Virus record (IMG/VR): IMGVR_UViG_3300026488_000015
Span: 1-64,000 of that record
Reading direction: 5' to 3' (one strand)
DNA length: 64,000 nt
From: a virus
Below are positions 33,877 to 44,355 of this stretch, in pieces. Position numbers and translations under genes: made by a program. Within the stretch, counting starts at the first letter, position 1. Each line of letters begins with the position of its first letter. The notes under the pieces are model-generated. The model had not been told where the DNA came from. It searched no databases and saw only the letters and a program-made list of their open reading frames with translations.

Positions 33877-34485
33877 TTATCTATTCATTTTATCGTAAGC
33901 AATATAAAAATCACCGAGAATTTTATCAACCTCTTCTGTATCTTTTGCATTAATGATTTTCTTCACAAAATCAGCACACATATTCCCAAAGTCAATAGAT
34001 GTAGTTACTTTATCTAAGAGTATTAAGTAGCTTTCTAGTTTTTCTATGATTGCTTCATCATCTTTTTCAATAATTTCAATATATTTTTCTTCACGATTAC
34101 TATTAGTGATTACAAACCCTTCGGCAGTAAGTTCATTGTTTAAAACAGTAAAAGAAACAATATCTAAAGATGTCATATTTGCCATATTATATGACATCTT
34201 CTTATTTACTCTCATCATATTAATTTTCTTATATACTTCAAATTCATCTACTGCTTCATCAGAAATATTAATATCCCCTGGAAGTGCTTCATCAGTTATC
34301 ATTTCTTTATTAATAGTGATGGTCTTCCCTTCTGAAAGACCATCACTAATCAACTGATAACTATTATAAGAAAGCTTAATAACTTTATCCTCTCTATTTG
34401 CTAAACCGTCAAACGAACTTTTAGTAGTACCAGTCACTAAATAATGAGTACCTCTATCTTCTACTATTGCTAATTCAAATATCAT
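33877..34485 (-). CDS. Hypothetical protein downstream of the Cys-rich gene
   Basis: AAGGAG SD; C-terminus IINAKDTEEVDKI loosely resembles fibre-chaperone/DUF4376 endings. Confidence 0.65.
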   Translation of the reverse strand: MIFELAIVEDRGTHYLVTGTTKSSFDGLANREDKVIKLSYNSYQLISDGLSEGKTITINKEMITDEALPGDINISDEAVDEFEVYKKINMMRVNKKMSYNMANMTSLDIVSFTVLNNELTAEGFVITNSNREEKYIEIIEKDDEAIIEKLESYLILLDKVTTSIDFGNMCADFVKKIINAKDTEEVDKILGDFYIAYDKMNR

Positions 34486-34509: not shown

Positions 34510-35010
34510 TTATGCATAGTTACAACCACAATTACCGTGACAAGTACACACGCTGTGGCCGCCGCAGTCACTATTACATATACAATCAGTTCTAAGCGAA
34601 TTGTATAATGCTAACATATCTGATGCTAATTTACTTGCATAAACAATGCTACCAGCAGAGACGGCACCAGTCGAACCGTGCCCTGTGCCGTTTAAATCAA
34701 CAATCAATTTATTAAAATCGTTTGCATAAACAGTATCACCTACAGCGATTCCCGCTGTAGCAGTTGTACTAAAATTATAGTTACCATTCTGATTCCATCT
34801 AGCAATTTCATTAATTGTGTTTGCTCTTAATAATTCTAAATCTGATGCGTTAATTATATTCCCAGCAGTTGCATTTGATAATGCAACTACTCTATTAGAA
34901 GCACAAGATGCTCTATTATACGAGCAACTATCAGTAGTACAATTACTAGTACAATGCGAAGGAGTACACCACCCCGTAGATGTTGCCGCCGTCCCTGAAC
35001 CTACTGCCAT
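34510..35010 (-). CDS. Cys-rich protein, candidate radical-SAM substrate or virion appendage
   Basis: 12 Cys in terminal clusters; three G..(I/V).A...L repeats; AGGAGG SD; directly after rSAM/SPASM gene. Confidence 0.75.
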   Translation of the reverse strand: MAVGSGTAATSTGWCTPSHCTSNCTTDSCSYNRASCASNRVVALSNATAGNIINASDLELLRANTINEIARWNQNGNYNFSTTATAGIAVGDTVYANDFNKLIVDLNGTGHGSTGAVSAGSIVYASKLASDMLALYNSLRTDCICNSDCGGHSVCTCHGNCGCNYA

Positions 35011-35011
35011 A

Positions 35012-36130
35012 TTATTTTCCTCCTAAAAGTTGCGAGAGAGCTCTATCTACTTTTCCAAACGCTTGATAGTAACCACATAAACCGTGAACTTGGTTATCTA
35101 ACCATTTATCTTCGTAAGAATCCTTTTGTGAAGCAGCATAAGATGAAGTAGGACAAACAAAACAAGTAGTTGCTACACAACTTTTGCATTGCTCGTTTGT
35201 CTTAGCTATCATCTTACTAAACTTCTCTCTATCTAACTTATTTATATCACCGTCAAGCGATAAAAGTTTGTGGTTCTCTTTATCATCAAGATATAAAGCA
35301 CCGTGGCACGGGTAGAAATTACCATCTGTGTCAAGTATAGTCATATTCTTACCAGAAGAACAAGTAAATCTAGTATCATCTCCTCTGTACCAACTGAATA
35401 GCATATGACCAAATTCTGAATAAAAGTCTAATTCTAGTGCACTTATTTCTCTAATTGCTTGTTCAAAATAAGGCAAATAAGTATTAGGGTCTTGAAGTTT
35501 TGTATGGTAATCAAGAGTAGGTGAATATCTAACATAGGTCGTTTCGCTATCATATTTTCTTTTTAAATCTCTAAATTCTTTCCATACAGTAACCATATTA
35601 TGCACCTCAGATAAAGGGAGTGTGCTTTTTAGGCTTAATGATTTTAGTCCTGCTTTACTCAACCAATCGAAAGTTTTAAGTACTTTATCGGCTGTTGATT
35701 CGCCTTTATGGTCTATACGGAATTTATCGTTAATTATTCTACCATCATACGATACTTGTACTCGTAGCTTAGAAGCATCAACACTATTAATGAATTTTTC
35801 CATAGTGCTTTGGTTAAAAGCATTAGTATATAAGTGATAATCAATATTATCATAATCGTGGAAATAGTTCATAAGCTCAGTCATAACATAGTTATTAAGA
35901 GTAGGTTCTCCACCCCAAAAATCTACACCAAGAGTATCATATTCTGCTTTAAACCAATCAGACGCTAAGGTTTCTTTAATTTTTTCTATATATTGAGGTA
36001 TATTTTGGTTTACTTGTTTATTATCAACAGCTTTTTCACCTTCAAAACAATATGTACAAGCCATATCGCAAGTCGTTACTGTGGTAATTTCAAAATTGAA
36101 CCCTCCTTTTGTCTGTATTCTATCACTCAT
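35012..36130 (-). CDS. Radical SAM/SPASM maturase
   Basis: CDMACTYC, WGGEPTL, SYDG; SPASM C.SG...DG.FYPC...CKSC....C..CP...C. Confidence 0.9.
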   Translation of the reverse strand: MSDRIQTKGGFNFEITTVTTCDMACTYCFEGEKAVDNKQVNQNIPQYIEKIKETLASDWFKAEYDTLGVDFWGGEPTLNNYVMTELMNYFHDYDNIDYHLYTNAFNQSTMEKFINSVDASKLRVQVSYDGRIINDKFRIDHKGESTADKVLKTFDWLSKAGLKSLSLKSTLPLSEVHNMVTVWKEFRDLKRKYDSETTYVRYSPTLDYHTKLQDPNTYLPYFEQAIREISALELDFYSEFGHMLFSWYRGDDTRFTCSSGKNMTILDTDGNFYPCHGALYLDDKENHKLLSLDGDINKLDREKFSKMIAKTNEQCKSCVATTCFVCPTSSYAASQKDSYEDKWLDNQVHGLCGYYQAFGKVDRALSQLLGGK

Positions 36131-36402
36131 TACATTTTCCCTTTCATTGATAGAATATCATCTATTATGGTTTGTAATTCAGCTTCTTCCATTTTATCTG
36201 CTTCAAGTTTTATCTCTTCTAGCATTTTATTACCCATATCCGCCAATATTGCACTCATTTCAGTAGATACTGGTAGCAACTCTACTGATGCCTCCATCAG
36301 TTTTGTAGAAGCCGCAAATAGATGAGCGTTTCTATCATTCTTAGATAAGATAATTTTCTCTACTCTATTAGCAGAATTCTCGTTTAGTGTTTTATTAATC
36401 AT
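36130..36402 (-). CDS. Small helical hypothetical protein between two SPASM enzymes
   Basis: AAGGA SD; coupled to the next gene. Confidence 0.7.
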   Translation of the reverse strand: MINKTLNENSANRVEKIILSKNDRNAHLFAASTKLMEASVELLPVSTEMSAILADMGNKMLEEIKLEADKMEEAELQTIIDDILSMKGKM

Positions 36403-36411
36403 TATGTTCCT

Positions 36412-37368
36412 TTAAACCCAGCTAACTAAATCAGCAATGAGGTCTTTATTTAATTTATTTATATTGCCTACAAGTATACCGTAGATAAACACATACATTT
36501 CGCATAGATATTCTATCGGTTTTTGGTTTTCTAGCTGTTGTATCAGACAACCTTTCTCGCAATATTGGTTTACGCTACAACTCTTACAGAAATCTTGTAT
36601 TGTTTCTGAATTTACTTGCGAATTAAAAATATCTTCTTTATCAAAATATCTGTAACAACTAAAAAATTTATTATCGTGAAATGCTAGAACAGTATCCCCA
36701 GCACCACAATCTTTTGGTGAGTATCCTTTTTTATGGTATCTAAGTATATGAGTTAAAAAATGAATGAAAAATGCTGGTATAGTATTTGTTGATGTAGCAT
36801 AATCCATTAATCCAGAAATATCTTCTTTGGCTTGCTCTATATTATCTTTATGCCATATACCGATATCCCTGACAATAGTAATCCCAGGATTAACTCCAAA
36901 CATATTGTACAATAATTTATGATTATCTTTCAACCCAAACATTGTACCATTCCACATAGCGTGTATTTTCAAATCATCGATAGTTCTAATAAGCTCTATT
37001 AAAGCCGGATGGAAGTCTTTTCCTCGCTCTGATTGCCAAATACCATCGTGAGATACAGAAACAGTCACTTTATTGTCGTTGAATATTTTGATTATGCCCG
37101 GTGCTAGTAGCAACCCATTAGTCATAATATTAGTTTTGAACCCATTACTATTACTGTACTCTATGAATTGTATGACTAAAGGCATTTGCATTAAAGGTTC
37201 TCCGCCCATAATATCAAAAATGTAATTTTCGTTTTCCTCGTATATATCTTCAAATTCTTTCTTAAATGTATCGAATGATATTTTTTCCGTTGATTTTTTG
37301 TCTATTATATAACAGTAAGAGCAGTCTAAATTGCACCCTTCTGATAATATCAGCGATATATGCTTCAT
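36412..37368 (-). CDS. Radical SAM/SPASM maturase
   Basis: CNLDCSYC, GGEPL, TNG, SHDG; CGAG...C...CKSC....YC.KGC...C. Confidence 0.9.
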   Translation of the reverse strand: MKHISLILSEGCNLDCSYCYIIDKKSTEKISFDTFKKEFEDIYEENENYIFDIMGGEPLMQMPLVIQFIEYSNSNGFKTNIMTNGLLLAPGIIKIFNDNKVTVSVSHDGIWQSERGKDFHPALIELIRTIDDLKIHAMWNGTMFGLKDNHKLLYNMFGVNPGITIVRDIGIWHKDNIEQAKEDISGLMDYATSTNTIPAFFIHFLTHILRYHKKGYSPKDCGAGDTVLAFHDNKFFSCYRYFDKEDIFNSQVNSETIQDFCKSCSVNQYCEKGCLIQQLENQKPIEYLCEMYVFIYGILVGNINKLNKDLIADLVSWV

Positions 37369-37464: not shown

Positions 37465-40400
37465 CTAAACTTTTACTGTTACTGTTCCATCGATTGAATC
37501 TTCTAAACAAATTCCGATTAATCTTTTTGATTCGTTGAAGTCGTAATCATCAACACCATAACCTTTACCATCTTTTCCAGCTAGCAAATATTGACCTTTC
37601 TTGGCTTCTGTTACAAAACAAGGAATCTTTCCTTTAAGTGCTATTGCTAAGTAAAGTTCATTTTCTGCTATCTCATCAGTATTATTCATTAGTAACGCAG
37701 GGTCAGTAGAAACAACTCCTGCTAGTTTCATACCTTCTTCGTACATAGTGATTTCATTATCCCCGCCGATACCCATTACAGTACCTGGAACCTGAACTTC
37801 ATCACTAAAGTAGTTTTCTGCTACATCGGCATATCTAGCAGATGTAGCAGTTAAGTAAGCTTTACCGTTTGAACCGTTTAAGAATATTCTTGCATCACCA
37901 TCAGAAGCAACATACATACCCCAACCCGCACCAGTTTGAGAACCGATGAACGAAGCAGATGCATCAGTAAAACCTATACCGTACATATTACCTAATGATG
38001 CATCTGAAGGGTTATAACTAGAACCGATAGTATAAATTGGGTTAGATTTAAGACTATTACCACCAACATTATTATAAGAACCTTCTAAGTGACCAGTGTG
38101 GTGATTATGTCTAGCATAAGTAACAGCTTTTACTCTATTTGAGAATGTAGCATACTCATCAACTTGTAAAGTACCTTCGATTTTGGTATTTTTACCATTG
38201 TCGCTTAATGTTACAACACCTCTAATTCTTGTAGTATCAGTCGTAGCGTTACCAAGAGTTGTATTACCTGAAACAGAAAGATTCGATTGTACATATAATG
38301 AACCACTATTAAGTGACATTCTAGTTATATCTGCTGAACTACCTGATTTAGTTACCCAAGCAAAGTTTTCGTTCCCGTTATCTCCAGTTCTAAATTCTAG
38401 TCTATTATTCGATGCAGAATCAGTAGTCGTAATGAACTTGATACTAGCTGTATCAGTTACAGAACTCCAATAAATACCTTCACCTGATGAGTTGAATTGG
38501 ACTGTACCTTCTACTGTTACACCAGAACTATTAGTAGCTAGTTTTTCTACGCCATTATTGTATAAATGAACACCAGCATTTTGGTCACACCAAATAGCGT
38601 TTTCTGAAGAACTATTTCTAAGTATTAAATCTCCACCAGTACTTTGGATATATAAGTTACCAGTACCTTGTTCTTCAATATAAGAGTGGCTACCTGAGTG
38701 GTAAATATCTAAATCAGAACTGTTACCTAAGTATAAGTGCTTATTATCATCGAATCTCATATCAGCTTGTACAGTTGTAGTGGCTTTAATTGTTAAAGCA
38801 TCACCCGTTGAGTCACCTAGTGTAGTATCGTTATATACTAATAAAGAAGTTAAATTAATATGATTCATTCTTGAAGTACCAGCAAAGTTACCGTAGTAAC
38901 CCGTAATATCTGAATCATAATAAATTGGTGCATAAACTGAAGTACCAACATATAATTTCTTAGCTATAGCAACACCACCTCTGAATCTTGCTCCTGCAAC
39001 AGTAGTACTACTTGCATCTAAAATACTTAAAAAGTCTGTATTATTATTTGTGTAAAATATTCTCATTGCTTCATAAGCAGGTATTCCAGTCGTTGTACTA
39101 AGTGAACCCATACCGATGTGACCGTAACCATCGCCAGTATAAGTCATACTTATAGAAGCACCAGCACTTTCACCTAATGTGATACCTGCTGATTGCTCGA
39201 TTGTACCTTCACTTGAAGAATCTAATGTAATCCAAGGTCTATTTTTTGTAATATTAATATCACCTTTAGTATCAAGTGCACCATCTCCATATACTCTGAA
39301 TCTAGTATTAGCTGATGTAGTTAGAGAAGCTGATGTATTAGCTCTTAAATCCATAAGAACATCTGAACCAGATACCCCCTTACCTTCTCCATCCATTTCT
39401 AGTACGATTCCGTAAGAATCGCTAACATCTACTTTATGTGAGATATAAAGTGAAGGACTTGCAGATGCACTAACATCGCTAATTGTCATTTTACCATTAA
39501 CAGTAGCACCAGTACTAGTAGTTTCAAATCTTTGAGAACCGTTGTAGTATAAATGAACACCTTCGTTTTGGTCACACCAGATTGCATTCTCTGTCGTTGA
39601 TGTTCTAAGATATAAATCACCTGAAGTACTTCTAATGTACATACTTCCAGTACCTTGGTCTTCAATGAAAGAATTTGAACCATCGTGGTAGATGTCTAAA
39701 TCTTTACCTGAACCGAAGTATAAGTGGTCGTTATCAGTAAATCTCATATCAGCTGTAACAGTTGTAGTAGCATTAATCGTTAATGTATCACTTGTACTAT
39801 TTCCAAGAATATTATTACCATTAAATGTTCCATTACCCGTTACTGTAAGATTACTACCAAATGATACTGATTGAGCAACATCTAATGAACCATTAATAAC
39901 AGTAGCTCTACCAGTGTCACTTAAAGTAACAGTACCTCTGATTCTTGTAATGTCTGCTGAACTATCACCTAGTGTAGTTGTTCCTAGAACATATAAAGAA
40001 CTTTTTAACTTAGTTGCTTCATCTACATCTAATGTACCTTCAACTCTCGTTAATTTACCATTATCAGATAATGTAACAGTACCTCTAATTCTTGTAGTAT
40101 CAGTCACAGCATTACCAAGAGTCGTGTTACCTAGAACATATAGTGTGTTGTTGAGCGTTGTCGCGCCTGTCACTGCTAGAGTACTTAAAAGTCTTGTCGC
40201 GCCCGTTACATCTAATGTCTTAGCGAAATCTACATCACCACCAACATTTAGTCTTCTAGCGATTCCTACTCCACCCTTAATAGCTAATGAACCACTATTA
40301 TAATTTGAACTATCCAAAGTACTTCTGAATTCTAAAGTTCCTTCAGTTGAACCATCTTGGACATCGATATAGCTAGTATTATTACCATCGATACCTTGTT

Positions 40401-43400
40401 TGAAGTAAACTAACCCACCATCTTGCGACATTTCGATAGCAACATTATCGCTCTCATCTACATTATCTGTGTCGCTTTGTAATCTGATAACCAAATCACC
40501 TTTTGCTTTCACATCATATAAGAAATTATCTGTAATGATTGTTTCTGTGTAATTACCACTTGAAGTGATTGTACTTACAATATCATTAACTGTTGTAGTG
40601 CTAACAATATCACCTGATACTGCAGTAGCTCTAGTAATATTTGTAGCATTAATAGTTTCACTAATATTAACAGCATCTAATAGGTATCGGAAATCATCGT
40701 GTGCATCGTATGTTACTTCGATGTCATCATCAGGTGATGTCATACTCCAAATAAAGTTACCGTGACTATCTTCAGCAACTAATTCATTGCTTTTGTTATC
40801 TCTAAGAGTTTTCGTCCAAACTCTCCATACACCAGCAATCTTTTGTCTTACCCAAATATTGTTAGAAGCATCATTCATTGCATAAGCAACTTGTGTACCA
40901 TAAGTATCACTATTTGTGTGCATCATCGTTACAACGAATGCCCAAGCACCTAAATCATCTGGTTCATTTGTAACTGAACCTTTATCGATATTGTAAACAC
41001 TATTTCTAACGATAGCATCTAAATTACCAGTATATGTTTCGTGTCTTTTGTTCTCTTTGTAACCATCTAAATTCCACTTACTAAGAAGCTCTTCTTGTGT
41101 ACCAGAAATTGTTCTAATAGGTGTTTCATCGTTAAATTCTTTAAGACCAGAGATTAATTCGTGCTCATCAGTCGTAACCATATGAGAATCAATCTCAATA
41201 AGACCATCAACTAAATTCTGTGCTACAAATCTTTCACTAAAATCATCACCTGAATCTGTTGTTTCTTGTAATTTTGAGATTCTACCAATTTCTGCATCGT
41301 GAATATTATGTGCTCTAACTAAATCTTCAGCAGGCGTATTATCATCGTAATATGTCGTAGTCATTGTAGCTAAATCACCGATTTCAAAATCGTGTTCATT
41401 AATACTAGAAACAACATCGATACCCGTTGTTGTTAGTTCATAAATGTTACCAATCTCTAAATCGTGTACATTTAGTGCAGTGATAATATCTTTAGCAATC
41501 TCACCCTGATTAGGGTCAATATCTTCTGTATGCTGTACTGTTAATTCTCTGTAATCACCCTTTTCAACTTCATTGATATTAATTGATTTAACTAAAGAAT
41601 CACCATTAACACCTTCTTGGAAGGCTGGAGAATACATAATAATATCTTCTTTGTCGCCAACATCGATTTCAAGATTGTGTAATCTTAATGAGTTTTCAGC
41701 AGAAACATCTACATATCCGTAATACTCACGGAATTCAATAATCCAACCTTCTTCCATTGTATCAACAAAACGAACACGACGCTCATCTACTTCAATATAA
41801 TCATCATTTTCTCTAAGAATAAGACCGTTTAAGTAAACATCTAATGATTTTCTATCATTTGTATATTTTCTTTGATTGGGTACAGTAATAATCTCACCTT
41901 TCTCTACATCTTCAGGAACCTCGTAATACTCTCTCATACGACCAGTGCTCATTCCAGAGATACCATCTTCATCATATAAGATGCCGTAAGAATAAAGGTA
42001 TGCTGCATCGTGCTCAGGTCTTAATGCTGTATCATTTCTAACAAATCTGAACCACATATTATCTTGTGCAGGGTCTGTTATGATATGCTGTTGATGCTTA
42101 CCATCGTACCAAATACCGTCTGTTCCATCGCTAGAATCGAATGAGTATTGAACATCATAATAAGCACCGTTATTGTTATCATTGATATAAGGGTAAACCA
42201 TATCGTAAAGGTCTGTGTTATCAGGACCAAAGATACTTTCGTTAGTACCAATAATATCACCTTCATTTTGAGCTAAGTATGCAGTTTCTCTTGCAACATA
42301 AACAACTGAACCAGTCGTAAGTGCTGTATAAGGTCTTTCAAAAGTTTCTACATAACATTTACTGAAAGGTGATTGCTGTAAGAAAAACTCATATTCAAGA
42401 GCTTCAGGAATAACACCATCACTTGCTGGATTATCAATATCTATTGCGAATAAAGTATCTGTAACTGCGATACCTGCTTTAACTGCTCCTGGGAATTTAT
42501 CTAATGTGATTCCACCTTTAACAGTAGCATCGATGTAGTAAATGCTACCTACTTCAAATCTTTCACCGACACCAAACATTGAATCAAGTCTAGCAGGAGT
42601 GAATTCTAGTGCTCCAGCAAAAATAATGTAATGCTGTAGTCCCATATTCATATAGAATCCTACTGCGTTTCCAGTTTCTGAACCATCACTAAGTGCTTTT
42701 TCATATAAACCAGTATCTAATTCTTTGTAAACAATATCAAAGTTCACAATATCACCGATTTCAGAACTAACAACTGGAAGACTGAAGAATGTAGCAGAAG
42801 CTTTATTTCTATCTACTGAAACGATTAAGTGTTGAGCATCAACAGCAATACCAACAGAAACAGAAACTTCTGTGTATTCTAGTTGTACTTTACCTTTGTC
42901 TAATTCATCTGTGCTTAAATAGTATTGTTTACCTGGAACTAAAGTCGTATTTGTAACACGAACATAACCATCATAAACGATATAATGTCTTGAATCGTAA
43001 ATCTTGTACATACCAGCAATAACTTCTTCATTAACACCAGAGTTAAAACCTTTCTCGTATTTTCCAGTATCTACATCAAAGAAAACGAAATCAGAATCAG
43101 AAATTGTTCCCACTTTACTTGAAGCGAACTCATAAACACCATTTTCGTGATATTCGTGTCTTTGAATGTCTAAAAGAAGTACACCTGCATCGATACCTCT
43201 ACCAATTTTCATACTTTGTGGTGGAGTTAAATCATCGTATGTTTTATATACGCCTTCTACTGTATCAGAAAGATAATAATCTTGTCCTGCTACGATACCT
43301 GATAATTCGACTAAACCAGCATAAACAATGTAATGTTTACCTTCATATAATTTGTATATACCAACAACTTCAGAAGCATCATCTGTATCAGATATAGCTT

Positions 43401-44355
43401 TTGAATAGATAGCTCCGTTTTTGTAAACGATGTCACCATCAGCTAATGTTGCTACTTCTGTACTATGTACTTGAAATAATGATTTTTCAGGAATAACTCT
43501 TTCGCTAATATTAACAACGATGTAATCTGTGCTTACTGCTCTACCAATTTTGATAGCGTTAGGTGCTTCATAACCATTGTAGTCGAATTTCTTGTAATCA
43601 CCTGAAACTGAATCAGATAAAAAGTAATCTTTTCCTACTTCTAAATCGTTATTAACAACTTTAACAAGACCATCATAAACGATGTAATGCTTAGTACCGT
43701 AAGATTTATAGAAACCTACAAGTCTATTTTCATCATCTTCAGAATTCTTTGCTTTCTCGTACTTTGTACCAGTGAAGTAAACTAAATCAGAATCATCGAT
43801 GTCGCCTTTTTGATTATCAGGGAATTCATAAGAACCTTGTTCAATAACTCTGTCTTCATCAACTTCTACTAAAATATGTGTAGGTGTTAGTGCTTTACCT
43901 ATTCTGATAGCACCTGGAAAAGGTTTATCATCAGAAAAACTCATAACTCCACCTAAAGTAGTGTCGCTTAAGTATTGGAATTGACCAACATTAAAGTTTG
44001 AACCTTCAATTTCTACTGCACCAGCAAAGATTAAGTACCAAGAACCTTCGTAGTTCTTAACTACACCAAAAGGTTTGTCTTTTCTGTAAGTATTGTTTGT
44101 TTCTGTATTGAAGATTGCTTTACCGTAGATGTATTCTCCGGCAACAAGTGGATTTTCGTAACGATATACTACATCTCCATCTTCTACTGAATTAATACCA
44201 CCTTCAAGGTCGATGTCAGCTAATGGAATTGTACTATTTGTGTACTCATAGTTATCAAGTTTAGTTACTAGTTGTTTAAGTGGACGATTAGCTACTTCAG
44301 GAGTTCCTCTTTCGCTTTCGTGTATCCAGTCTATTTCATTATATAAAGTTCCCAT
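37465..44355 (-). CDS. Long tail fibre protein with C-terminal intramolecular chaperone-like domain
   Basis: 2296 aa; N-terminal W...E....NRPL; internal repeats; knob-like domain; C-terminal SARYADVAE...GVVSTDPALLMN...IALKGKIP. Confidence 0.85.
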   Translation of the reverse strand: MGTLYNEIDWIHESERGTPEVANRPLKQLVTKLDNYEYTNSTIPLADIDLEGGINSVEDGDVVYRYENPLVAGEYIYGKAIFNTETNNTYRKDKPFGVVKNYEGSWYLIFAGAVEIEGSNFNVGQFQYLSDTTLGGVMSFSDDKPFPGAIRIGKALTPTHILVEVDEDRVIEQGSYEFPDNQKGDIDDSDLVYFTGTKYEKAKNSEDDENRLVGFYKSYGTKHYIVYDGLVKVVNNDLEVGKDYFLSDSVSGDYKKFDYNGYEAPNAIKIGRAVSTDYIVVNISERVIPEKSLFQVHSTEVATLADGDIVYKNGAIYSKAISDTDDASEVVGIYKLYEGKHYIVYAGLVELSGIVAGQDYYLSDTVEGVYKTYDDLTPPQSMKIGRGIDAGVLLLDIQRHEYHENGVYEFASSKVGTISDSDFVFFDVDTGKYEKGFNSGVNEEVIAGMYKIYDSRHYIVYDGYVRVTNTTLVPGKQYYLSTDELDKGKVQLEYTEVSVSVGIAVDAQHLIVSVDRNKASATFFSLPVVSSEIGDIVNFDIVYKELDTGLYEKALSDGSETGNAVGFYMNMGLQHYIIFAGALEFTPARLDSMFGVGERFEVGSIYYIDATVKGGITLDKFPGAVKAGIAVTDTLFAIDIDNPASDGVIPEALEYEFFLQQSPFSKCYVETFERPYTALTTGSVVYVARETAYLAQNEGDIIGTNESIFGPDNTDLYDMVYPYINDNNNGAYYDVQYSFDSSDGTDGIWYDGKHQQHIITDPAQDNMWFRFVRNDTALRPEHDAAYLYSYGILYDEDGISGMSTGRMREYYEVPEDVEKGEIITVPNQRKYTNDRKSLDVYLNGLILRENDDYIEVDERRVRFVDTMEEGWIIEFREYYGYVDVSAENSLRLHNLEIDVGDKEDIIMYSPAFQEGVNGDSLVKSININEVEKGDYRELTVQHTEDIDPNQGEIAKDIITALNVHDLEIGNIYELTTTGIDVVSSINEHDFEIGDLATMTTTYYDDNTPAEDLVRAHNIHDAEIGRISKLQETTDSGDDFSERFVAQNLVDGLIEIDSHMVTTDEHELISGLKEFNDETPIRTISGTQEELLSKWNLDGYKENKRHETYTGNLDAIVRNSVYNIDKGSVTNEPDDLGAWAFVVTMMHTNSDTYGTQVAYAMNDASNNIWVRQKIAGVWRVWTKTLRDNKSNELVAEDSHGNFIWSMTSPDDDIEVTYDAHDDFRYLLDAVNISETINATNITRATAVSGDIVSTTTVNDIVSTITSSGNYTETIITDNFLYDVKAKGDLVIRLQSDTDNVDESDNVAIEMSQDGGLVYFKQGIDGNNTSYIDVQDGSTEGTLEFRSTLDSSNYNSGSLAIKGGVGIARRLNVGGDVDFAKTLDVTGATRLLSTLAVTGATTLNNTLYVLGNTTLGNAVTDTTRIRGTVTLSDNGKLTRVEGTLDVDEATKLKSSLYVLGTTTLGDSSADITRIRGTVTLSDTGRATVINGSLDVAQSVSFGSNLTVTGNGTFNGNNILGNSTSDTLTINATTTVTADMRFTDNDHLYFGSGKDLDIYHDGSNSFIEDQGTGSMYIRSTSGDLYLRTSTTENAIWCDQNEGVHLYYNGSQRFETTSTGATVNGKMTISDVSASASPSLYISHKVDVSDSYGIVLEMDGEGKGVSGSDVLMDLRANTSASLTTSANTRFRVYGDGALDTKGDINITKNRPWITLDSSSEGTIEQSAGITLGESAGASISMTYTGDGYGHIGMGSLSTTTGIPAYEAMRIFYTNNNTDFLSILDASSTTVAGARFRGGVAIAKKLYVGTSVYAPIYYDSDITGYYGNFAGTSRMNHINLTSLLVYNDTTLGDSTGDALTIKATTTVQADMRFDDNKHLYLGNSSDLDIYHSGSHSYIEEQGTGNLYIQSTGGDLILRNSSSENAIWCDQNAGVHLYNNGVEKLATNSSGVTVEGTVQFNSSGEGIYWSSVTDTASIKFITTTDSASNNRLEFRTGDNGNENFAWVTKSGSSADITRMSLNSGSLYVQSNLSVSGNTTLGNATTDTTRIRGVVTLSDNGKNTKIEGTLQVDEYATFSNRVKAVTYARHNHHTGHLEGSYNNVGGNSLKSNPIYTIGSSYNPSDASLGNMYGIGFTDASASFIGSQTGAGWGMYVASDGDARIFLNGSNGKAYLTATSARYADVAENYFSDEVQVPGTVMGIGGDNEITMYEEGMKLAGVVSTDPALLMNNTDEIAENELYLAIALKGKIPCFVTEAKKGQYLLAGKDGKGYGVDDYDFNESKRLIGICLEDSIDGTVTVKV

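Follow-up and report, generated by a model that had tools for sequence, protein, structure and literature searches.

Thioether cross-linking by radical SAM enzymes is known chiefly for small antimicrobial peptides, and to our knowledge the only protein substrates of such cross-linking that have been described are QhpC and CrpA (2026). PapB makes repeated short-register thioethers from Cys to the beta-carbon of Asp, yielding the ranthipeptide freyrasin, with CX3D as the natural register in PapA, and in the NxxcA/NxxcB system an Asn and a Cys at three-residue spacing are joined by a beta-thioether to Asn. S74 proteins, for example, endosialidases and tail fibers, cleave themselves before a Ser and fold trimeric fibers. 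In vitro, PapB accepts Cys-Xn-Asp with n = 0-6, and so CxxD, and makes both in-line and nested links (PMC9413430). The SPASM enzyme CrpC of Methanococcus voltae makes ranthionine cross-links in the 28.8-kDa Cys-rich protein CrpA (PMC13692751, September 2026). The CrpA repeats carry a C-x-x-Q/D motif, with the links narrowed to CAGM, CAVD, and CPLV and the Cys placed before the acceptor, and a beta-helix has been proposed for these repeats at low confidence (PMC13692751). According to a passage of the same paper, the SPASM enzyme QhpD makes Cys-Asp and Cys-Glu thioethers in the protein subunit QhpC (PMC13692751). Given the CrpA/CrpC and PapB precedents, a three-residue register from Cys to acceptor, made on a protein by a SPASM enzyme, is therefore already known.

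Here we analyze a Cys-rich protein encoded by a virus, IMG/VR record IMGVR_UViG_3300026488_000015, of which positions 1 to 64,000 (64,000 nucleotides, the whole stretch of DNA that was analyzed) are referred to as the window. The gene and its neighbors are:

33877..34485, (-) strand, downstream partner, 202 aa, matches phrog_25260
34510..35010, (-) strand, Cys-rich protein gene, an ORF of 166 aa with 12 Cys
35012..36130, (-) strand, radical SAM/SPASM enzyme, 372 aa, PF04055, presumed maturase
35019..35024, (-) strand, Shine-Dalgarno AGGAGG, read from the sequence, 8 nt ahead of the ATG
36130..36402, (-) strand, small protein, 90 aa, between the two radical SAM genes, helical by sequence pattern
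36412..37368, (-) strand, second radical SAM enzyme, 318 aa, Cys-rich C-terminal region, PF04055 at 49 bits

Similar to CrpA/CrpC, a SPASM gene here adjoins the gene for a protein-sized, repeat-bearing Cys-rich protein with a CxxX register. In contrast to CrpC, which belongs to TIGR04463 and has an RRE, the 372-aa enzyme falls far below that model (29.3 bits, N-terminal half only, against a cut-off of 525), and because its radical SAM motif begins at residue 21, an N-terminal RRE would not fit. The repeats of CrpA span 17 residues and its N-terminus resembles a leader, whereas the window protein has a six-residue repeat (hexad) and two tails around a core, and unlike CrpA, its family has S74-bearing relatives and a phage tail-fiber setting. 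PapB is the best NCBIfam match of the 372-aa enzyme over nearly the full profile (NF047865, 84.9 bits, profile positions 9-311 of 330, below the cut-off of 340), but PapA is a short peptide with an Asp acceptor, whereas the window protein is 166 aa long and has Asn as the dominant +3 residue. As with QhpC/QhpD, the putative substrate is a protein rather than a peptide, and QhpD is the enzyme’s third-best family match (about 56 bits, cut-off 453); QhpC, however, is a periplasmic enzyme subunit with a leader and without a fixed short register or tandem repeat. The hexads of the window protein hold NxxC as regularly as CxxN, as in NxxcA, whereas its N-terminal motifs show CxxH/N only, and the NxxcB family model was absent from the enzyme’s NCBIfam matches. 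Long relatives of the window protein carry Peptidase_S74, like the S74 fibers and spikes (endosialidase, the GA-1 neck appendage 3gud, T5 pb1); unlike these, the window protein is without S74 and ends in NYA, and most relatives keep a 12-aa stub alone.

The literature searched yielded no S74 protein with Cys hexads or a radical SAM partner, and no prior description of a phage radical SAM enzyme with fibers, S74, or thioethers. New features here are a double-Cys repeat six residues long, the preponderance of Asn and His, a folded core flanked by two tails, the link to S74, and the phage tail-fiber setting. The model of the CXXX-repeat target family, TIGR04114 (18 positions, cut-off 20 bits), had no match in the phage record at E up to 10. 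The ESM Atlas returned mostly viral clusters, one of which, with 295 members, has PF27846 (tSAM_targ_Cxxx_rpt) in 40%; this Atlas lead to PF27846 has a score of 0.83 only. We treat these clusters as a hint that phages commonly carry further radical SAM target families.

The explanation we favor, at a rough probability of 0.5, is that the Cys-rich protein is a substrate of the SPASM enzyme, that its tails are stapled by thioethers, and that it is of the fiber type.

The cysteine register of the 166-aa protein

The earlier note had claimed that 10 of the 12 Cys have N, D, or H three residues downstream, and the ORF translation agrees exactly: the +3 residues are, in order, S, N, D, N, N, N, D, H, H, N, N, and A. 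The 12 Cys form two groups, five within residues 15-36 and seven within 143-163, and at any other offset from -6 to +6, N/D/H is found for at most 5 of the 12. When the Cys were kept fixed and the non-Cys residues were permuted within the two Cys-rich segments, so that local composition was kept, none of 200,000 shuffles reached 10 of 12 at +3 (the maximum, 9, was reached 33 times), and when the best of 8 offsets was taken, 1 shuffle in 20,000 reached 10. Because the N/D/H set was picked after looking, conservation is a stronger test than shuffling.

About 10-11 close relatives (50-73% identity) were found by word-index search, and a profile search of 1.84 billion representatives retrieved 171 clusters at E up to 0.001, the members of which are mostly viral. 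Across 158 homologs with 1,753 Cys, N/D/H occupies +3 in 67.6% of cases versus a background of 18%, with -3 (46%), +1 (37%), and -1 (33%) as the next-best offsets. By column, in 145 aligned homologs, the share of N/D/H at +3 is 73% for C20, 75% for C29, 98% for C36, 95% for C143, 92% for C145, 91% for C149, 80% for C155, 94% for C157, and 91% for C161. These are nine of the ten positions named in the earlier note, in homologs down to about 25% identity, and C15 and C163, which depart from the register in the window protein, do so throughout the family as well (24% and 1% in the 145 sequences). The note had set +3 conservation among homologs as the check on its proposal and its absence as grounds for abandoning it; at 68% overall against 18%, and 73-98% in nine columns, the +3 residues are conserved, and the proposal thus survives. 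Correlating the presence and absence of Cys in the N-terminal tail with that in the C-terminal tail gave no clear pairing.

The possibility that an Asn-rich, Cys-rich segment yields CxxN by accident draws on the richness of these segments in N, S, and T and on the post hoc choice of the residue set. Set against the shuffles, none of which matched the observed 10 of 12, and against columns that are 73-98% N/D/H in 145 homologs, a chance origin is negligibly probable, and we reject it.

The 166-aa protein has no Pfam, PHROG, or NCBIfam family match, and none of the 171 clusters has a Pfam, PHROG, or NCBIfam family for the Cys-rich module; eight Cys-rich family members searched against NCBIfam at E up to 10 likewise gave no match. 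A tblastn search of 50,697 cultured-phage records with the window protein and the family member P0018 as queries found no match, nor did megablast with 15 kb of the window.

Hexads and N-terminal motif behind the register

The Cys-rich protein is divided as follows:

34894..34968, (-) strand, N-terminal Cys tail, residues 15-39, with C20, C24, C29, and C36 each having N/D at +3
34588..34893, (-) strand, folded core, residues 40-141, three repeats of an extended segment then a helix, from AlphaFold2
34513..34584, (-) strand, C-terminal tail, residues 143-166, with hexads CICNSD / CGGHSV / CTCHGN / CGCNYA

Judging from the aligned family, the source of the register is four tandem C-x-C-(N/H)-x-(D/N) hexads together with an N-terminal CxxHR/CxxNR pair. 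The latter is a duplicated motif, C-x-x-(H/N)-R-x-x-C-x-x-N-R, that contains C29 and C36: C29 is Cys in 94% of the 145 homologs, with H/N at its +3 in 75%, and where C36 is present, its +3 residue is N in 98% of sequences. For the hexads, the logos of 132 members read

hexad 1: C100 x C100 (N73 H15 D9) S (D83 N9)
hexad 2: C100 x C64 (N79 H9) x V66
hexad 3: C100 x C100 (H50 N28 Y14) x (D53 N41)
hexad 4: C100 G C90 (N73 H15) Y95

Position 4 of a hexad is the +3 residue of its first Cys, and position 6 is the +3 residue of its second Cys. Since the period is six, a +3 residue is also the -3 residue of the matching Cys in the next hexad, which makes CxxN and NxxC indistinguishable, and any putative link could run in either direction. 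The second Cys of hexads 2 and 4 have Val and Ser at +3 in the family, which counts against stapling, although a Val at +3 would be unremarkable given CrpA links such as CPLV. Where hexad 2 lacks its second Cys (47 members), positions +1 and +3 from that site vary much more, as a functional link would predict, but a lineage effect would explain this equally well.

The register had been called strict in the earlier note. It is genuine and conserved, with the qualifications that two hexad positions have Val and Ser in the family and that the C-terminal tail holds CxxN and NxxC alike. A similar qualification applies to the suggestion that CxxN/D is a new recognition motif: its conservation and the SPASM gene upstream speak for a recognition motif, while the C-x-x-Q/D motif of CrpA/CrpC makes it less new. 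That the N/D/H residues at +3 are the acceptors is one of several readings, and we hold it to be doubtful.

The upstream radical SAM/SPASM enzyme

The AGGAGG of the 166-aa gene sits within the 3' end of the radical SAM gene 35012..36130, the TAA stop of which lies 1 nt ahead of the 166-aa gene’s ATG. In this arrangement, the two genes are translationally coupled, with a strong Shine-Dalgarno.

The 372-aa enzyme belongs to the radical SAM superfamily by PF04055 (36.3 bits, cut-off 29.5), and the CxxxCxxC cysteines C21, C25, and C28 as well as the GGE are invariant in 17 orthologs (29-78% identity). Its assignment as a SPASM enzyme follows from C257, C275, C315, C318, C323, C326, and C352, which are invariant in the same 17 orthologs; the SPASM domain model TIGR04085 is slightly under its cut-off (26.4 versus 27 bits). 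After PapB, the next NCBIfam matches are the nif11 maturase (57 bits), QhpD (55.6 bits), and the SCIFF maturase (53.8 bits), all under their cut-offs, and the best PDB match is CteB (5wgg). By these comparisons, the enzyme is closest to the thioether-forming maturases PapB, QhpD, and SCIFF/CteB, but all of these family scores are far below the curated cut-offs, which counts against stapling. The published proximity profile of the ranthisynthase catalytic site comprises CteB F112, F152, T186, S210, H363, and Q364 (PMC10288494). In a phmmer alignment to 5wgg, with CteB alone compared, the counterparts are F29, W72, Y101, S127, H276, and G277; three match CteB exactly, one more is a conservative change, and five of the six do not vary among the orthologs, which we take as no more than suggestive.

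Full-length homologs of the enzyme with 26% identity were also found in 15 records of T4-like Campylobacter phages (CP220, CPt10, CP21). These homologs, such as that of CP220 (L030, 164742-165911 of the record), precede a 1,159-aa protein annotated as an endolysin. No Cys-hexad protein lies beside these Campylobacter phage homologs, which are thus uninformative on the substrate.

Synteny and neighboring genes

An ortholog of the 372-aa enzyme lies immediately upstream of the Cys-rich gene in about 22 of the 23 loci examined, the assignment being ambiguous for the short contig L025 only. These comprise the window, L002 (54% identity), all 15 full IMG/VR loci at 30-70% substrate identity, the contigs of P0020 and of the 832-aa P0126, and L023; in L021, L022, and L024, truncated upstream ORFs match the enzyme (E 1e-5 to 7e-33). 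In two chromosomes of Halobacteriovorax, a predatory bacterium, the enzyme ortholog is also upstream of the Cys-rich gene (L026/L027). This synteny is the strongest evidence, drawn from gene order, for the enzyme acting on the Cys-rich protein, and we consider it probable that the 166-aa protein is its substrate. That the chemistry on this protein would be thioether formation is suggested by analogy, and we place it a little short of even odds.

The other neighbors recur as well. An ortholog of the second radical SAM enzyme is upstream in Halobacteriovorax and in 14 of the 15 IMG/VR loci, whereas L017 and L023 lack it, and this 318-aa enzyme may act on the 166-aa protein too. A counterpart of the small protein, about 79 aa in length (range 62-92 aa), occupies the same place in about 14-15 of the 15 IMG/VR loci; the 90-aa protein itself has no Pfam, PHROG, or NCBIfam family match, and by sequence pattern it is unlike a PqqD-type RRE. 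Directly downstream, a counterpart of about 205 aa to the 202-aa protein is found in 14 of the 15 listed loci, and the 202-aa protein is 31% identical to its Halobacteriovorax counterpart (E 2e-31). The island also holds at least seven other radical SAM genes, sugar-nucleotide enzymes, and transferase-like genes, and with so many other radical SAM and sugar enzymes, the true substrates of the enzymes may be others, which counts against stapling.

The whole island recurs in two Halobacteriovorax genomes, L027 (1-12543) and L028 (7286-17847), beside an aroB/aroA-like gene. It has both radical SAM genes, the small protein, the 202-aa partner, GT-like paralogs, and more radical SAM genes, along with DegT, PIG-L, epimerase, and Ugd, and its Cys-rich protein is 183 aa long and ends in CGCHY. 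No homolog of the window’s gp6-like baseplate protein was found with that protein as the query. The island may point to phage host range or gene exchange.

With eight radical SAM genes in the window and 12 Cys in a protein encoded beside them, one could also suppose that the Cys tails hold iron-sulfur clusters and that the protein is an electron carrier, reducing or supplying the island’s radical SAM enzymes. However, the searches gave no match to a ferredoxin-like family or fold, the S74 and Ig-like fusions of relatives (below) point to an exposed structural protein, and a strong Shine-Dalgarno with coupling better fits a stoichiometric product; we consider such a carrier very improbable.

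Predicted fold and S74 chaperone link

With the 145-sequence alignment, AlphaFold2 gave a mean pLDDT of 79 and a pTM of 0.74, with values above 90 over about residues 41-140 and core helices at 55-72, 96-107, and 125-141; an earlier AlphaFold run with 11 sequences had a pLDDT of 57, and Foldseek with that model was empty. Both Cys tails are below 50 in the AlphaFold2 model, which counts against stapling. A RiPP precursor peptide is a short leader-core without an independent fold; at 166 aa and with a core pLDDT above 90, the window protein is, as modeled, not a RiPP-like leader-core peptide. Foldseek against the PDB with the 145-sequence model found no match, and BFVD gave weak matches to unnamed rudivirus and phage proteins. 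VIA-align returned the designed filament DpHF19 and Beclin/Vps30 BARA domains at Z 5.9-6.5; we rejected homology to either, given the middling Z and the common three-repeat arrangement.

In the family, the sequence after ...CGCNY takes three forms: 0-2 residues, the form found in the window protein; most commonly, a stub of 12 residues, SDxRLKxxIxY(C/I/L); or a domain of 66-190 residues. In the long relatives, this domain is Peptidase_S74, above cut-off, beginning at the Ser directly after the Tyr of ...CGCNY (PF13884 in P0013, P0026, P0047, P0066, P0072, P0126, and P0138), and the full domain is present in most IMG/VR relatives. The window protein, which ends ...CGCNYA, has no PF13884 match. 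A PDB profile search matched the S74 part alone, weakly (3gud, 8jov, 6f45), and the cleaved chaperone chain of 3gud starts with SDERHK. With S74 directly after the last hexad and self-cleavage before Ser, the mature chain would end ...CGCNY. The stub form (members P0002-P0075) keeps the S74 Ser/Lys dyad and none of the remaining domain; at L025:520-1337, the stub form is followed by a distinct 101-aa ORF that matches S74 weakly.

By analogy with S74 proteins, the 166-aa protein is probably a trimeric fiber- or spike-type component, trimerization being part of that analogy, and its hexads probably sit in the trimeric stalk or tip. In some relatives, which reach 832 aa (P0126), the module stands behind Ig-like or cadherin-like domains or 600-residue fiber-like N-terminal regions, and in the window, the 166-aa gene follows shortly after a 2,296-aa fiber gene and T4-like baseplate genes. 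We infer a fiber-type role, in the virion for the phage or at the cell surface for Halobacteriovorax.

The 2,296-aa fiber protein (37465-44355 of the window, (-) strand) has no Pfam match, and its last ~200 residues are, by eye only, like self-cleaving C-terminal fiber domains. In the Halobacteriovorax island, a 526-aa protein (L028:8487-10067, (-) strand) has the PF07963 pilin methylation motif, short N-rich repeats, and Peptidase_S74 at its C-terminus; to find a type IV pilin N-terminal motif joined to Peptidase_S74 is unusual.

The same structural evidence feeds the main rival to stapling, a structural Cys ladder that could coexist with cross-links. Here, the S74 chaperone would nucleate a short trimeric stalk in which the hexads resemble a beta-solenoid, with the i, i+2 Cys facing inward to bind metal or form interchain disulfides after release and with N/H/D/Y at positions 4 and 6 as corner residues or as an Asn or aromatic ladder, and the radical SAM enzymes would act on a sugar or another protein. 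S74 directly after the hexads in relatives agrees with this, as do the C-x-C geometry, which puts both Cys on one strand face, and the tolerance of position 4 for N/H/D/Y/F, as seen at ladder positions. Another S74 protein in the Halobacteriovorax island has short N-rich repeats before S74, and T4 gp37, a trimeric fiber lined with HxH iron sites, is a precedent. Nevertheless, a ladder leaves unexplained why the enzyme ortholog is directly upstream in nearly every locus, in phages and a bacterium alike; Asn, which is dominant at position 4, is a poor metal ligand, and no metal-binding family or fold was matched. On balance, we judge this account unlikely.

The C-terminus invites a further alternative, in which ...CGCNY serves as a mycofactocin/PQQ-like small-molecule scaffold: the radical SAM enzymes would process it, and it would be excised and glycosylated, with the S74 domain or stub as the processing site. 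The Tyr is 95% conserved and is the penultimate or last residue of the mature chain, and the island has two SPASM-type enzymes, a small accessory protein, sugar-nucleotide enzymes, and transferase-like genes. These points must be weighed against a conserved, confidently folded 100-aa core, relatives that fuse the module to Ig-like domains or 600-aa fiber-like N-terminal regions, and the fact that S74 is known from trimeric fibers and spikes rather than cofactor pathways; moreover, the short forms end in NY, NYA, NYG, or the 12-aa stub, with no uniform free C-terminal Tyr. We regard such a scaffold as quite improbable.

Proposed cross-linking and its meaning

Returning to stapling, the enzyme would act before folding and trimerization, abstracting a hydrogen from a carbon in a side chain near each Cys; the Cys sulfur would then be bonded to that carbon, giving short ranthionine (non-alpha thioether) rings that would staple both Cys tails. 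The most specific form of this proposal, overlapping three-residue-spaced rings from Cys to the beta-carbon of Asn, Asp, or His along the hexads of a trimeric virion fiber tip, we consider unlikely.

The locus nevertheless brings to light an uncatalogued, mostly viral family of 171 representative clusters that is tied to a thioether-type radical SAM enzyme, with its genes in the tail-fiber region of large T4-like phages and with relatives joined to the trimer-folding S74 chaperone. The cassette is small, consisting of the enzyme and its putative substrate. If the Cys bind metal instead, the hexads would be a Cys analog of the T4 gp37 His-iron needle and still a new fiber motif. If the cross-links are real, the hexad array would be a compact natural scaffold for nested thioether rings, a densely nested new ranthionine topology common to the phages and a chromosomal island of Halobacteriovorax. 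Such covalent cross-links would also be the first of RiPP style in a structural protein of a virus, and they would mean that phages harden or shape a receptor-facing structure by RiPP chemistry.
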